Origin: an uncultured Nitrospiraceae bacterium
GTDB taxonomy: Bacteria > Nitrospirota > Thermodesulfovibrionia > Thermodesulfovibrionales > SM23-35
Direction of reading: 5' to 3'
NCBI GenBank assembly: GCA_963727775.1
Contig: CAVSHB010000004.1
Span: forward strand, 96,001-160,000
Length of the DNA stretch: 64,000 nucleotides
Shown here: positions 12,001 to 18,000 of the stretch, in pieces
How the letters are laid out: each line of letters begins with the position of its first letter
How positions within the stretch are numbered: the stretch's first letter is position 1
Made by a program: the position numbers

Positions 12001-15000
12001 CGAGCATTACGATAAACTCCTAAACCATCTCGAACATGAACTCTCTCTTATTGCGAAAGTGCATGATGCCGATTCCTATTTCCGCCTCCGCTCTATTCCA
12101 GGCGTCGGAAGGATCCTCGGCCTCACCATCCTCTATGAGATACATGATATCAACCGCTTCCCTCGCGTACAGGATTTTGTCTCATACTGCAGACTGGTGA
12201 AATCCGCCAAGGAGTCGGCTGGGAAAATAATCGGGGCATCCGGCAAGAAGATCGGCAATGCCCATCTGAAATGGGCCTTTTCCGAAGTTGCTGTGCTTTT
12301 CCTCAGGAGAAACCCAGAAGCCGTAAAATACCGCGCAAAGCTGGAGCGAAAGCACGGCAAGGCAAAGTCTCTGACCATCCTTGCTCATAAGCTTGCAAGG
12401 GCTGTCTATAATATCCTCAAGAAAAAGGAGGTGTTTAATCCTAAAGTATTCTTTGCGAAATAAAGCTGGGACCGGGTGAGCCTGTTCGTCTAACTGGCGC
12501 CATTAGGGTGAAGTCCGATAGATGCTCGTAAACATCATATGTTTGCAGCTTCGACTGCCCTTCGATCATCCTGGAATATTATGCCCGGCGCAAATACGCT
12601 TTGATTAGGACATCCGGTCCCTCATAACATATAAAGATTGTTAAGGTTCTGTCCCTTACCCGAGCCTGATACTAACTGGATGAGGCCACTGACCTGAACC
12701 AGACCTTTGAATAGGACGGTACAAGGGTACTAAATTGTTTCTAGGTCGTGGAGAACAAGGGCGATTGCTCTCTCCACTGTCGCCGGGGATAGAGATTGTG
12801 AAAACAGTTCTCTTTCTCATGGCTATTGAACCTCGATAAGTGTTTGGTGCAGACATTGATCTAACGCCGCATTTGAAACCAAGTCAGAGCTGGCGATGGT
12901 CTTTTAAAAAAAAGAAATAGAATTTTATTTTATTTCCGATCAGGATCGTTTTTTCTCTTGACAGGGCAGGGCCTTATAAGTGTTAAATGGTCTGTTCCAT
13001 CTTCTCTTTGGGTCTCTCGTCTACGTACGCATGGTAATTCTGTGAATCGGGACCCCAGTCGAAGAAAACCCCGACATCCTTATTCCTCATGGCAGTCGCA
13101 TGCTCGTCACTCAAGGACAAGTTTATGATCGAAAGGAGAAGCGGAGATCGTCTGCTTACCAAGGAAGCATAAACCTCGATAGTATAGCCGCCCGAAAGAA
13201 AATCGTAAGTAGTTCCATCTTTCGGTGTTAAGAAATGATGGTTACAGACTAGGCCGTCAATCCCGACAGTAATTCCCGAGCCACGGGCAAGAAACGTGTC
13301 TCCGTAAACCCACAGGTTGAACGTCTGCAAGGTCTCTCCTCGCTTTACTTTGACAAACATGCTCTCCACTATCTGATTCCTTCTTGACGTACTATAGAGA
13401 AGGGTTCGCAAAAAGACCTTCGACATTCCTTCGGGGTCTCGCCCGAAGAAGATCATCGTGGGTTGCGTCATCTTTATTGTGCCCTTTCTGAGAAGAGTAA
13501 GCCACGCAGTAAGCCCTGCGACAAACAGAGAGAATATGGCGATTACAATTGCAGCAATCTGGAGAACCATTATTTTATGCCTCTAATCTCTTTCCATTTA
13601 ACATTTACTTTTACGCATATTATATATTTGCTTAAAAGATTATAATTTCCCAAGTTGATTGTCAATAAAATTTACCGGAAAACCGCTGATAGGTGACTAA
13701 TAATTCTATATGCGGATCTGTTATTGATGGATGCAAAAGTAATGTCCTATCCCTGTTGCGAATTTGTCATTCTGGCTTGTCCAGAATCTTTCTTCCGGAA
13801 GGACTCCCGACAAGCGGGAGTGACAGACAGGGAGACGTTATGAGAACATTTACTTATATAGGAGTCTATAGTTTTCAGACAGGCTCTGTGTCTCTATATT
13901 TACTATTAACATACATTATTCATAATTCATAAGATTGCCGACAGATGCAGTATTTAAGCGGTTTTAAATGCTTTCGAAGAAAGAATTTACCTCGGAGGCC
14001 CGATTTGTACCGGGCCGAGAATGAGCGCAAATACTGTATTTGTCGATAGTAGCAAATTTTATGAATTAATCGGGTTAATTAATACGGAGGAGATATGGGC
14101 AGCAAAAGCTTGAGGGCAGCACCTTTGTGGGCGGCAAGATATCAAATTGGACCTGCGGTTTTAATGTTACGCGCAACAACATCGAGAAAACACAAATTCT
14201 GCATCCTCAAGGTTTTGATGCCCATATCTCCGACGTCCTGAGCCACTTTCGTAAAGACTAAAAAACGCGTATGTGTGACGGGTCTGACTAAAAGATTATA
14301 GTCCGGCTTCTTCCAGAACCATAGGGACCTTCTTCTCCCAGCCGATAGCCATGATGTGGACACCCTGGCAGAGGTCTTTCATGCCCTTAATAAGTTGCGC
14401 GGCTATCTTGACGCTGGTTTTTGTCTTGTCCTTTGTCTCTTCCATCTCTTTAATGAAAGGATCGGGAACGGACACGCCGGCCACATTTTTATTCATGAAC
14501 TTGGCCATACCGGCTGATTTGAGAAGGATGATCCCGCCCATTACCGGGACCTTAAAACCTTCTACCCGTTTCATAAATTTTTCGAAGAGGTCTAAATCGA
14601 ATATGCCCTGGGTCTGAAAGAATCTTGCGCCGGCTTCGATCTTCTTCTCCATCTTAATAATCTGCATCTCCAATGCGGCTTCATTATCGGCCCCGGGGTT
14701 TACCACCGCTCCGGGAAATAATTGCGTAGCGCCCTTAAGCTGGTTACCCATCATGTCAAAACCTTCATTGAGTTTACTTATCACCCTTAACAGGCCGACG
14801 GAATCCAGATCGAAAACAGGCATCGCCTCAGGGTGATCGCCGAGTGACGGATGGTCTCCGGTTAGGGCCAGCACATTTCTGATACCCAGGACCCAGGCGC
14901 TTAACAGATCGGATTGGAGCGCCAGCCGGTTTCTGTCCCTGCATGTCATTTGGAAGATAGGATCGATACCGTGGTCCGTAAGGAGGTGGCTAACCGCCAT

Positions 15001-18000
15001 CGAACCCAATCGCATAACAGAGCTCTGCAGGTCGGTGACATTGATCGCATCCACTTTCCCTTTAAGGAGTTCCGCGTCTTCCAGTAATACGTCTGTATCT
15101 GTTCCTTTAGCCGGACCTATCTCAGCCGTGATAAGGAACTTGCCGGAATCTAAAGCCTCCCTCAATCCCATCTCATTTTGATCCTTTTGCAGGCCCCTTC
15201 TTCAGCCTCAAATCTTCTCTCACCATCCTCCGGGGGCTTACAGGTCTTGTCTTCGGCTTGGTCATCCCGCTCAGGACATCAGCCATTTTTGTTTTCCCGA
15301 GTTGCGCGTATATGAGCTGCCACGCGCATGGGTTGTCCTTCGAAACCTCGCACATGCCGGCCTTTGCCCCGCCGCAAGGACCGTTGATCAACTTTTTAGC
15401 ACAACGCGCCACAGGGCATATTCCGCCTGTTTTATGGAGTATGCAGTCTCCGCACGCCGCACAAACCTCAACCCATGTACCCTGTCCGCCTGAAAGTCCG
15501 AGGAAAGTAGTATTCATCGCAGGCAAAACAGTGACCCCTTTCAGTCTCTCGGCGATACCCTGCACACCGGCCCCGCAAGCCATAGACAGGACTGCATCGT
15601 ACTGAGAAGCCTCTTCTTTTATCTGATCGATGAATTCCGGATCGCACTGCCGTAATATCGTCTTTTCTCCTGCAACAATCTCTTTGCCTTCCAGTTTCTT
15701 TGCCATCCTGATAGAAGAAGCCAGCAGTTCAACCTGCCGCTCACCACCGCTCATGCAGACGGTGACACAGGTGCCGCAGCCGAGGACCATAACTTTCTTG
15801 CAGTCCTTCAGCATCTCCTTTATCTCGTCGAAAGGTTTGAGTTCAGCGACAATCATGGCACTACCTTCTTTCCCGTACGTAAGGGATTTACACCCATGGC
15901 ATCAAGCCTCTCCCGGAAATGCTCGAAATCCTCATCTCCAGAAATGATGGCCAGTCTATCTTCTCCCAGGCCTATTTCATTTAAAATCTTTTTGGCCCTT
16001 TTTATATGTTCCTCCATCCATCGAGCGCCATCCCTGAAACGGCATGCGTCAATGGTGCACATGTGTACAGCAACACCTTCAACGCCAAGTTCAAAAGGAT
16101 AAAGTATCTCCGATTCTTTCAGATTGCCGGTGCAGTATCTTCCGAGCCAGTATATATCGTCCCTCTCAACAGGGGGGCTCAAAGGAGAATCATATCTGCA
16201 ATAGAAACCGATTACGAGGATTTCCGGCTCCTCTTCTCTTGCGGAATCCACAAGCTGATCCAATTCCGTATGCAGGTCTTCTTTTCCTATTCTTTCAATA
16301 TCTATCGCAGCTGCCGGGCATTCAGATGCGCAGATTCCGCAGGACTGACATTGACTGATATCTATTTCCGCTATCTCCCTTCCCGGGACCGGCACGCCGA
16401 AGGGACATATACGGACACAATTGAGACATGCCGCACAGGTCTCTGTAACCGATGCCCCTGCGCCGCAGTTCAGGCATCGCATGGCTTCCCTGCATGCCTG
16501 CTCCTGGGTATAGCCCAAATCCACTTCTGCAAAATTATCGATGCGTTCTTCAAACGGCAAAGTCGGCATCTTCTGTCTCTCAGATTTATTTAACAAATTA
16601 ACCACATTCTCATCTAAGGCCCGCAAAGGCTCAGCGACATGATGTCCTTTATCCGGTTCATTGCGAAAATAACGGTGTATTGCTTCAGCAGCTCTTCTTC
16701 CAGCTGCCATTGCTTCGATGACACTCATGGGACCCGTCACGACATCGCCCGCGGCAAAAACGCCCTTTATGTTGGTAATGCCCGTCTCGTCCTGAACGAT
16801 CACGGTACCCTTCCGGTTTATAGTTAAGCCATTGTGAGTAAGGGCTTCCGCGTCAGGGATATACCCGATCGCAGATATTACTGTATCAACTTTCAATTCA
16901 AACTCGCTGTTTTCTATCGGCTCCGGCCTTCTTCTTCCCGAAGCATCTGGCGCTCCGAGCTCCATCTTCACAAGCTTTACACTCCGGACCTTACCTTCAC
17001 CTACGAACCCGACCGGAGAAGTCAGGTACAGCATCTTGACCCCTTCCTTTTCAGCCTCCTCCACCTCTTCTTTGCCGGCAGGTATCTCATCCAGTGTCCG
17101 GCGATAAATAATGGTAACGTCCGGACATCCAAGGCGGACGGAGGTCCGCGCCGCGTCGATAGCGGTATGCCCTCCCCCGATAACCAATACCCTTTGTCCC
17201 AAATCCGGAACCTGTCCCCTGCATACCGATTTAAGAAATTCAAAACCGGAGATTATTCCGGACAGATCGTTCCCGTCGCACTTCGGCAATATGCTCTTCT
17301 GGCTGCCTACAGCCAAAAAAACCGCATGATAATCTTTAAGAAGTCCTTCGAGGGTAAAATCTTTGCCGAGAGAAAGGCCGGTCTCCGCTTCAATACCCAA
17401 GGATAAGATATTATCTATTTCTTGTTTTACGAGCTCTTTCGGGAGTCTATATTCCGGAATTCCTTCGCTCAATAATCCGCCGAGCACATTCCGCGCTTCA
17501 TATATAGTGACTTTGTAACCGAGCAATGCGAGGTCGTGGGCCGCTATAAGACCGGCCGGTCCGCCCCCGATTACGGCTATCTTTTCGGCGTATGAATTTC
17601 GGGGTTTTTCCAGGAGGTCCAGTTTTTTTGTCTGATCAACCGCAAAGCGTTTCAAAGCCCTTATCGAAACAGGCTTGTCCACCTGTGCGCGCCTGCAGGC
17701 CTTTTCACATAGCCGGGTGCAGATCCTTCCGCAAACAGATGGTAACGGGTTTACCTGGCGGATAATATGAATTGCTTTTTCTACATTATTTTGGGCAATA
17801 GCGGAAACATAACCGCGGACATCGGTTTTTATCGGACATGCTGCCTGGCAAGGGGGTATGGCTTTTTCACTCATTTGTTCATTCCTCCGGCTAAACTTCC
17901 TAAAAAATACTTTGTGCCTTCGGCACCCCTATATGAATACTTTACCTCATCGACACAAAACAGTAAACGCAGTACCCTTACCTCCCTCGCGGGCATTACA

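Follow-up and report, generated by a model that had tools for sequence, protein, structure and literature searches.

We analyzed a window of 64,000 nucleotides (positions 96,001 to 160,000 of contig CAVSHB010000004.1) from an uncultured Nitrospiraceae bacterium, in which a survey of the genome had placed the methylene-tetrahydrofolate (THF) reductase (MTHFR) genes metV and metF behind folD and a gene for a 673-residue fusion protein. These open reading frames were confirmed, all on the minus strand, and are listed here with folE:

14296-15171, minus strand: metF, 291 aa, Pfam MTHFR, catalytic flavoprotein
15173-15856, minus strand: metV, 227 aa, Pfam DUF5981, iron-sulfur subunit of methylene-THF reductase
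15853-17874, minus strand: fusion gene, 673 aa, GltD/StnC-type flavoprotein, 2x[4Fe-4S] ferredoxin and MvhD domain
18039-18887, minus strand: folD, methylene-THF dehydrogenase/cyclohydrolase, context, maker of the substrate
19082-19645, minus strand: folE, GTP cyclohydrolase I, context

The stop of the fusion gene and the start of metV share 4 nt (ATGA), and metV and metF are separated by 1 nt. The gap between folD and the fusion gene measures 164 nt and contains a terminator-like hairpin, so that co-transcription of folD with the fusion gene is not established; 9 hairpin sites of this kind were counted in the region where 7.8 would be expected by chance, and the scan for promoters and terminators did not rise above chance.

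Pfam matched four parts of the fusion, Fer4_20 (residues 7-84), Pyr_redox_2 (98-392), Fer4 (477-524) and FlpD/MvhD (580-644), the last over the cut-off with an E-value of 3.8e-12, and the AlphaFold2 model had a pLDDT of 85.7 and a pTM of 0.82. Pfam, alignments and a fold match agree on the GltD-like flavoprotein, ferredoxin and MvhD domains and on the four MvhD cysteines that the survey had described. The parts of the protein lie as follows:

16462-17856, minus strand: circularly permuted GltD-type module (aa 7-471), FAD and NAD(P)H Rossmann folds, two [4Fe-4S] motifs completed by C467/C470 (cysteine census)
17650-17652, minus strand: Lys75, in the alignment at the place of StnC K170, where the proximal cluster has a ligand; bifurcating NfnB has Glu there
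17098-17106, minus strand: YRR motif (aa 257-259), NADP(H)-binding signature (PMC7596348, partial text)
16303-16446, minus strand: 2x[4Fe-4S] ferredoxin domain (aa 477-524), closest to the C-terminal ferredoxin of metV-linked HdrA
15865-16230, minus strand: MvhD-fold domain (aa about 549-670), with C559, C581, C606 and C611

The best matches of the N-terminal module, in sequence and in fold, are StnC of Sporomusa and the NfnA subunit of NfnABC, which were the top PDB hits and come from three-subunit Nfn/Stn complexes (PDB 8oh5, 9bov and 9n5u; PMC10482914 and PMC11829005, partial texts). According to these texts, both share the permuted cluster motif and the Lys at the proximal cluster, and their NADPH enters through a non-bifurcating FAD. 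The fusion differs from them in having neither the NuoG part nor the StnAB/NfnBC (NuoE/NuoF) partners, its exit being a ferredoxin and an MvhD domain instead. NfnB (NfnL) of the bifurcating NfnAB belongs to the same fold family, with about 40% identity and with the Arg and YRR kept, but the fusion is permuted, has Lys for Glu and has no nfnA neighbor; the genome encodes a separate, true nfnAB, in which nfnB adjoins nfnA and has the Glu ligand. The survey's label "GltD/NfnB-like" is therefore apt as to the GltD type but should be narrowed, since the module, permuted and with a Lys ligand, belongs with StnC and NfnA and is not NfnB proper. A further relative is DsrL, an NAD(P)H:acceptor oxidoreductase that serves a partner reductase and has an N-terminal two-cluster domain, an FAD/NAD(P) core, a C-terminal ferredoxin and likewise YRR and non-YRR subtypes (PMC7596348, partial text); the fusion differs in the MvhD domain that follows the ferredoxin and in a gene that lies beside metV and not beside dsrAB. 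Lys at position 75 was found in 131/131 fusions, as was R143, which aligns to NfnB R201, the bifurcation-linked Arg near FAD N5. YRR is present in 116 of the 120 nearest homologues and in 28/131 family members, the other 103 being without it.

In the C-terminal half, the eight ferredoxin cysteines occur in 131/131 fusions, and C559, C581, C606 and C611 were invariant in 34/34 and 30/30 aligned homologues. The latter four align, via a relative, to C13, C42, C67 and C72 of 5odc_D, which we take to be cluster ligands. When the predicted C-terminal domain was compared with solved MvhD chains, 7bkb_F gave a Z-score of 15.2 and an rmsd of 2.2 Å over 120 residues. The fused domain has neither the second N-terminal Cys of free MvhD nor the conserved stretch that follows it (stretch present in 0/131). 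At least 1 of the four MvhD cysteines is missing in 21/131 fusions and 5 retain one or none, including at least one fusion that lies before metV (L245); the [2Fe-2S] relay is therefore not essential everywhere. PF02662 was found in all 120 of the best homologues listed (609-705 aa), in line with the survey's statement that most homologues have three parts; their database annotations read glutamate synthase or formate dehydrogenase beta subunit.

The metF of this locus is the only copy found in the genome, which also has acsB and fhs. The acsB frame has 679 codons, whereas those of relatives mostly have 730-775, and the gene end lies in another frame, which may reflect an assembly error or a real break. 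Profiles built from relatives' hdrB (17) and hdrC (19) gave no match of at least 35 bits in six frames of this 96.8% complete genome, whose CCG-domain matches fall in other proteins. HdrA profile matches were confined to an mvh-linked hdrA and qmoAB, with none at the fusion locus, and the NCBIfam HdrA models cover only residues 477-644 of the fusion. The designation "Hdr-free" consequently stands for hdrB and hdrC but goes too far for the genome as a whole, which carries hdrA beside mvhDGA, plus qmoABC. PF10418 has three matches in the genome, all on one contig (C2) and one of them beside the true nfnB. An rnfD lies on a contig other than that of the fusion.

The usual layout in the phylum is folE-folD-[slot]-metV-metF. 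A match to the C-terminal 199 residues of the fusion (E<=1e-19) was obtained in 48 of 300 phylum genomes, so that the earlier figure of 3 of 30 class genomes was an undercount. metV lies downstream of the fusion in 44 of these 48, the gene being elsewhere in 3 and cut by the contig end in 1. For the slot, we scored 99 metV genes at 97 loci of the phylum, counting a fusion if it lay at most 4.5 kb upstream: 37 were preceded by the fusion, 22 by hdrCBA-mvhD, 39 by neither, and 1 was a second copy. Fusion and hdrCBA-mvhD occur together only at L052, as two separate operons; in one genus of the phylum, 3 genomes have the fusion away from metV and hdrCBA-mvhD before metV. acsB was present in 77/80 genomes, in all three slot states, which rules out plain metVF as the mark of genomes without the Wood-Ljungdahl pathway. 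The survey had checked the context in 3 relatives only, and it proved to hold in several phyla: metV lies downstream of the fusion in 15/16 cases of the Actinomycetota sample and 10/11 of the Planctomycetota sample (1 cut in each), and in 4/6 and 1/2 cases of two further phylum samples. Altogether, the fusion is present in at least 6 phylum or class samples (Spirochaetota and archaea being outside the sampling) and adjoins metV in five samples other than that of the window, anammox genomes among them; the genomes with the fusion include some with hydrazine synthase (3 of 5 tested). A wider collection scan by alignment returned at least 601 stretches, and 80 loci yielded one full-length fusion. 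In one genome (G669), what looked like an 834-aa protein of fusion plus MetV was discarded as an overlapping frame in GC-rich DNA, the real locus consisting of a fusion (683 aa), metV and metF. At an archaeal locus (L168), GltD-ferredoxin and MvhD are encoded as a split pair among hdr genes.

One class of Bacillota has the fusion in 130/149 genomes, where it adjoins metV in 17 of 70 tested genomes and is unlinked in the other 53; among the 12 best-scoring fusion loci of this class, 10 have unrelated neighbors. The metV loci of unlinked genomes read acs...acsE-metV-metF, with no hdr gene, in 18/20 cases.

Sequence affinities were then compared part by part. A ferredoxin profile from 34 distant fusion representatives scored a median of 58 bits against metV-linked HdrA (n=26) and 30 against other HdrA (n=9), and a motif common to the fusion ferredoxin domain and HdrA was found in 22/26 metV-linked versus 0/9 other HdrA. 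In a MetV tree of 63 rows, one branch (SH-aLRT 100) separated 47 MetV from fusion, Hdr/MvhD or fusion-in-trans systems from 16 plain or NuoF-linked MetV, and R69 was found in 47/47 of the former versus 0/16 of the latter, a split that amounts in effect to one contrast; the groups were named after a first tree, and the plain MetV come from one phylum only. The MetV of the window groups with the MvhD-linked and not with the plain proteins. No structure of MetV was found in the PDB copy searched. The GltD modules of the fusions do not form one clade (15 label changes), YRR and non-YRR groups being intermixed with HdrA inserts, and in the C-terminal tree one YRR member sits with the non-YRR, anammox-type members (both FastTree, with long-branch warnings). 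These mixed groupings point to module exchange; a single origin of the fusion is not shown, since the GltD modules fall into several groups.

As the survey had claimed, this set of genes matches none of the four MTHFR types as these are defined in the available portions of PMC8760232 and PMC9430772. Type I consists of MetF only, whereas here metV precedes metF by 1 nt. Type II, MetVF only, has both proteins in common with the window but not the input-subunit gene that overlaps metV or the MvhD-linked kind of MetV. Type III is MetVF-RnfC2, and no RnfC-like frame occurs among those from folD to metF. In the type III enzyme of Acetobacterium woodii, a single added subunit takes the pyridine nucleotide and feeds MetVF without bifurcation (PMC8760232, partial text), as is proposed for the fusion; RnfC2 is an FMN/RnfC protein, however, and the fusion has an FAD/GltD fold with an NADPH motif. 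The closest likeness is to type IV of Moorella thermoacetica and Sporomusa ovata (same two sources), which shares MetVF, an MvhD domain with the four cluster cysteines, an HdrA-type C-terminal ferredoxin, the GltD NAD(P)H module (in the Moorella HdrA), the genomic slot in relatives and a MetV of the same lineage. Unlike type IV, the fusion system lacks HdrB, HdrC and the HdrA thioredoxin-reductase cores, which are the proposed bifurcating flavins in the accessible text of PMC8760232 and PMC9430772; its MvhD is fused and lacks the conserved N-terminal stretch, and it comprises three proteins instead of six. The fifth type proposed by the survey thus lies outside the four types but is not an unrelated design: it is composed of elements of type IV HdrA and MvhD and is therefore a reduced type IV. 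No description of a fusion-metV-metF set was found in the main texts of the literature searched, and a mention in a supplementary gene table is possible.

From these observed genes, domains, motifs, gene orders and sequence affinities we infer that the fusion may bind MetV, and further its probable cofactor, the occupancy of its clusters, and the path and direction of its electrons. It is likely the electron-input subunit of a three-protein, non-bifurcating methylene-THF reductase, a wire from NAD(P)H to MetVF. NADPH would transfer a hydride to the fusion FAD. Single electrons would then cross four [4Fe-4S] clusters, first the pair in the GltD module and next the pair in the ferredoxin domain, and after these probably the MvhD [2Fe-2S] cluster, before reaching the MetV clusters and the MetF flavin. 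With them MetF would turn methylene-THF into methyl-THF, which would enter the Wood-Ljungdahl pathway and the synthesis of methionine. With one flavin and one chain, there would be no bifurcation, and Lys75 matches K170 of the non-bifurcating StnC (PMC10482914, partial text). The YRR motif points to NADPH for the fusion of the window, and most family members, being without it, probably use NADH. In the available texts of PMC9430772 and PMC8760232, Sporomusa MvhD pulls down MetF and the Moorella HdrA with a GltD insert oxidizes NADH. With NADH as the donor, the reduction of methylene-THF releases 23 kJ/mol. As to the order of events, the parts may derive from a Moorella-type type IV enzyme (MvhD and, from HdrA, both the GltD insert and the ferredoxin at the C-terminus) by loss of both HdrA thioredoxin-reductase cores and of HdrBC.

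The fusion might instead be an NAD(P)H oxidoreductase for ferredoxin or another carrier, co-regulated with metVF, with MetVF being fed by the free carrier and no complex being formed. The 53 unlinked Bacillota genomes and the three genomes with hdrCBA-mvhD before metV would fit this, as would the reports, in sources available in part, that type II MetVF takes reduced ferredoxin in vitro and that Sporomusa MetVF did not co-purify with its Hdr partners. However, MetV from Bacillota genomes with an unlinked fusion falls together with fusion-adjacent MetV (support 97), has the MvhD-linked signature and is mostly encoded in loci with no hdr gene. Moreover, the reduction of ferredoxin by NAD(P)H is uphill in the absence of bifurcation, and we consider this explanation unlikely. 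It seems quite improbable that the MvhD domain docks MvhAG or FdhAB, so that the fusion would link H2 or formate to NAD(P)+ and another protein would feed MetVF in trans. Methanogen MvhD does bind MvhAG or FdhAB (PMC6085437), the genome has mvhDGA-hdrA, and the split pair of L168 lies among hdr genes; but the genome's mvhGA has its own mvhD, the fusions lack the N-terminal stretch of free MvhD, and, the Bacillota class aside, by far most fusion genes are followed immediately by metV.

Bifurcation within the single chain was also considered. The FAD would split the NADPH electron pair: the high-potential electron would reach MetV and methylene-THF by way of the MvhD [2Fe-2S] cluster, which would stand in for the NfnA cluster, and the low-potential one would run along the [4Fe-4S] chain to ferredoxin. 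Such a module would save energy at the methylene-THF step of the Wood-Ljungdahl pathway without any Hdr subunit. It would do so in relatives of sulfate reducers, in anammox bacteria and in uncultured members of Actinomycetota and Bacillota, and where its gene is unlinked it would also serve metVF operons of type II appearance. The invariant R143 and the presence of both cluster routes in one chain are compatible with it, and the energy gap estimated from the potentials would permit it. Against it, the proximal cluster has Lys and not Glu, as in StnC, which keeps the R201-type Arg and yet is non-bifurcating (PMC10482914, partial text); the GltD-ferredoxin-MvhD order suggests one line; and fusions with a nearly Cys-free MvhD still precede metV. 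We therefore regard it as very improbable. Points that speak against the non-bifurcating wire are the unlinked Bacillota copies, the three genomes of one genus with hdrCBA-mvhD in the slot and the fusion elsewhere, the Cys-poor MvhD members, the 39 partnerless metV genes, the scattered GltD modules, the narrow basis of the MetV split, the retained R143 and the shortened acsB frame of the genome.

Several bacterial phyla, anammox bacteria included, thus share a subunit composition that none of the four described types covers. As a natural three-protein form that retains no more than an NAD(P)H module, the terminal ferredoxin and MvhD, it offers a minimal system for studying electron entry into MetV and the contribution of the Hdr core. 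The split between YRR and non-YRR members predicts NADPH- and NADH-specific forms. Finally, the unlinked Bacillota copies suggest that, for some operons now classed as type II, an NAD(P)H input is encoded at another place in the genome; energy balances drawn for those organisms would shift accordingly.

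The survey's finding had placed a 673-aa fusion of a GltD-type flavoprotein, a ferredoxin and an MvhD domain before metV and metF, and the open reading frames of the window confirmed that the three genes are consecutive: the metV start overlaps the stop of the fusion ORF (ATGA), and metV and metF are spaced by 1 nt.

19082-19645, minus strand, folE
18039-18887, minus strand, folD
15853-17874, minus strand, fusion ORF, 673 aa
15173-15856, minus strand, metV
14296-15171, minus strand, metF

Upstream of folE (window 19745-21111) lie an inositol monophosphatase-family gene and a 5-formyl-THF cyclo-ligase gene, and the cyclo-ligase-folE pair is conserved among most relatives. 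Four ORFs around the region (window 5936-7180, 9875-11095, 11375-12463 and 25102-26379) are, as we take from their sequence, transposase-like. In the source genome (96.8% complete), a single copy of metF was found, and fhs, rnfD, a true nfnA-nfnB pair, qmoABC and an mvhDGA-hdrA cluster are present; profiles built from relatives' genes gave no match for hdrB or hdrC in this genome. It also carries an acsE-acsD-acsC-acsB-cooS run, these genes, like those just past the run, being named from sequence. The acsB gene (contig C4, 200002-202201) encodes 668 aa and its C-terminal motif runs on in a 141-aa ORF in another frame, a frameshift that is either real or assembly-derived. Immediately past the acs run (contig C4, 189651-197901) come a nuoE-like gene, a pair of nuoF-like genes of 777 and 784 aa, one gene of 205 aa and a nuoG-like gene (684 aa), possibly a HydABC-like module.

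The three-part architecture proposed for the fusion and its homologues was upheld. Pfam detected Fer4_20, Pyr_redox_2, a dicluster ferredoxin (477-524) and FlpD/MvhD (580-644), NCBIfam HdrA models covered residues 477-644 only, and all 120 best homologues listed (609-705 aa) contain the MvhD domain. The close homologues are Nitrospirota by source names and are annotated as glutamate synthase or formate dehydrogenase beta subunits. An AlphaFold2 model of the fusion reached a pLDDT of 85.7 and a pTM of 0.82, and the last 199 residues, folded separately, matched solved MvhD chains with Z 13.7-15.2 and ferredoxins with Z of approximately 10. The N-terminal module is circularly permuted, with the first two GltD cluster cysteines (C467 and C470) located after the flavin domain, the same permutation as in its best PDB matches, StnC and NfnA.

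We then considered the slot before metV in the phylum. A search with the C-terminal 199 aa (10 candidates at most scored per genome) matched 48 of 300 other genomes at E ≤ 1e-19. Match coordinates and fetched loci placed metV within 5 kb downstream of the fusion in 44 of these; metV was elsewhere in 3 genomes of one genus (G063, G118 and G245), and a contig end interrupted the locus in the remaining one. We fetched 100 loci, 97 of them metV-centred (136 genomes had a metV match). The fusion was upstream of 37 of 99 metV genes (three fusions being frameshift-broken, some with inserted genes), hdrC-hdrB-hdrA-mvhD was found instead in 22, neither in 39, and one metV was a second copy. The fusion and hdrCBA-mvhD occupy the same slot; genome G253 (locus L052) has both operons in tandem, each with its own metVF. 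HdrA is approximately 1010-1100 aa in 17 of the 22 Hdr loci and 1480 aa in 5, where it has a GltD insert like Moorella HdrA. The acsB gene was present in 77 of 80 genomes, spanning all three slot states.

Several features of individual loci were also recorded. The stretch between the two G253 operons holds a pair of receiver genes and one sensor-like gene. In G259 (locus L047) the fusion and metV are followed by another metV, this one of the plain lineage, and then by metF. The mvhD gene of 20 of the 22 Hdr-type operons has an in-frame TGA, probably encoding selenocysteine, at the third cluster cysteine (e.g., loci L052, L060, L062, L071 and L124), which is Cys in L108 and L128. In L060 (genome G208) hdrA is split and nuoE-, nuoF- and nuoG-like parts are interleaved.

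Beyond the phylum, when 1.84 billion representatives were searched with a profile, 51 clusters among the best 150 showed the same three-part build; five of the 20 looked up had source names in Actinomycetota, Chloroflexota, Spirochaetota, Bacillota and Planctomycetota (Ca. Tripitaka, class Brocadiia). Genome sets centred on named loci were then searched; because related genomes are not independent, the resulting counts indicate spread and are not statistics. The Actinomycetota set of 181 genomes gave 16 full-length matches; metV is the next gene in 15, the remaining locus is cut, and an AcsC-sized gene lies immediately upstream in 13. The Planctomycetota set, also of 181 genomes, gave 11 matches, 10 of them followed by metV and one cut; of 5 genomes checked for hydrazine synthase alpha, 3 have it. 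Six matches in 201 genomes came from the phylum of a Desulfobacteraceae record (G304), 4 adjoining metV, and 2 in 201 from that of a Dehalococcoidia record (G303), 1 adjoining metV. In the class of a Bacillota record (G305), 130 of 149 genomes matched, with metV adjacent in only 17 of 70 checked; among 18 genomes with a non-adjacent fusion, 18 of 20 fetched metV loci read acs genes-acsE-metV-metF with no hdr gene. Genes named from sequence as sensor-kinase-like and receiver-domain flank fusion-metV-metF in loci L314, L315, L316 and L319. A second Hdr-free layout (loci L146, L199, L201, L204, L284 and L291, from Dehalococcoidia, a deltaproteobacterial record and the Bacillota class) consists of a NuoG/molybdopterin-type gene of approximately 890 aa, nuoE, a NuoF-GltD fusion of 1020-1065 aa, metV and metF; the MetV of this layout branches as a separate clade next to plain MetV. 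In a Bathyarchaeia record (L168), a 587-aa GltD-ferredoxin gene overlaps a 251-aa MvhD-containing gene followed by hdrA, mvhD, hdrC and hdrB, with no metV within the locus.

By profile scores, the closest match of the fusion's ferredoxin domain is the ferredoxin at the C terminus of metV-linked HdrA (n = 26, median 58 bits; other HdrA, n = 9, median 30 bits), and a shared motif occurs in 22/26 versus 0/9. In a MetV tree of 63 rows picked from an earlier 151 and later loci, with groups named after the first tree and plain rows from one phylum, a single branch (SH-aLRT 100) splits 47 sequences from fusion, Hdr/MvhD and unlinked-fusion genomes, including that of the window, from 16 plain or NuoF-linked ones; R69 is found in 47/47 versus 0/16. 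Phylum MetV beside fusions with xLE, the non-YRR form of the nucleotide motif, nests among Hdr-operon MetV, a pattern consistent with the fusion having replaced the Hdr module, although the tree is rooted only at its midpoint. The GltD modules do not form a single clade, making repeated deletion or module exchange likely.

We regard the fusion as probably a non-bifurcating NADPH route to MetVF; the motif evidence draws on PMC7596348, PMC10482914 and PMC11829005. Electrons would pass from NADPH to FAD, through four [4Fe-4S] clusters and probably a [2Fe-2S] cluster, and on to MetV and MetF, with the genome's own NfnAB as a possible NADPH source. Fusion K75 aligns with StnC K170, the lysine replacing the Glu ligand of bifurcating NfnB, and the StnC FAD is described as non-bifurcating despite a retained Arg (PMC10482914, PMC11829005), which the fusion also keeps (R143). 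Position 75 is K in 131/131 fusions and E in the source genome's NfnB; bifurcation within the single chain is the least probable reading. YRR (residues 257-259), which in DsrL-2 and NfnB marks the use of NADP(H) (PMC7596348), occurs in 28/131 members, and in the window's fusion favours the reducing direction. The 103/131 with xLE could use NADH, or NAD+ in the oxidising direction with pull from product removal, as described for type III (PMC8760232).

The four MvhD cysteines are complete in 110/131 members, and a [2Fe-2S] relay is likely in the window's fusion. Five members keep one or none, including that of locus L245, which yet precedes metV; this suggests a role of MvhD shifting towards docking, and the relay would not be required throughout the family. 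That the fusion serves to dock a hydrogenase or a formate dehydrogenase is very unlikely, and indirect supply of MetVF through a free carrier somewhat less so, though still improbable. The direct NADPH route remains our preferred reading.

The survey had also proposed that this gene set fits none of the four methylene-THF reductase types defined in PMC8760232 and PMC9430772. This was borne out: judged by gene content, it misses the defining feature of each, shares its parts with type IV and would work like type III. Sections of PMC5736913, PMC9012536, PMC7325909, PMC7483475, PMC6295475, PMC10608574, PMC10689502 and PMC6085437 present metVF only alone or with Hdr/MvhD, and in the literature searched, supplementary material aside, we found no description of the fusion with metVF. 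The fusion-metV-metF set is real and widespread and appears to be an undescribed subunit composition of a central anaerobic enzyme.
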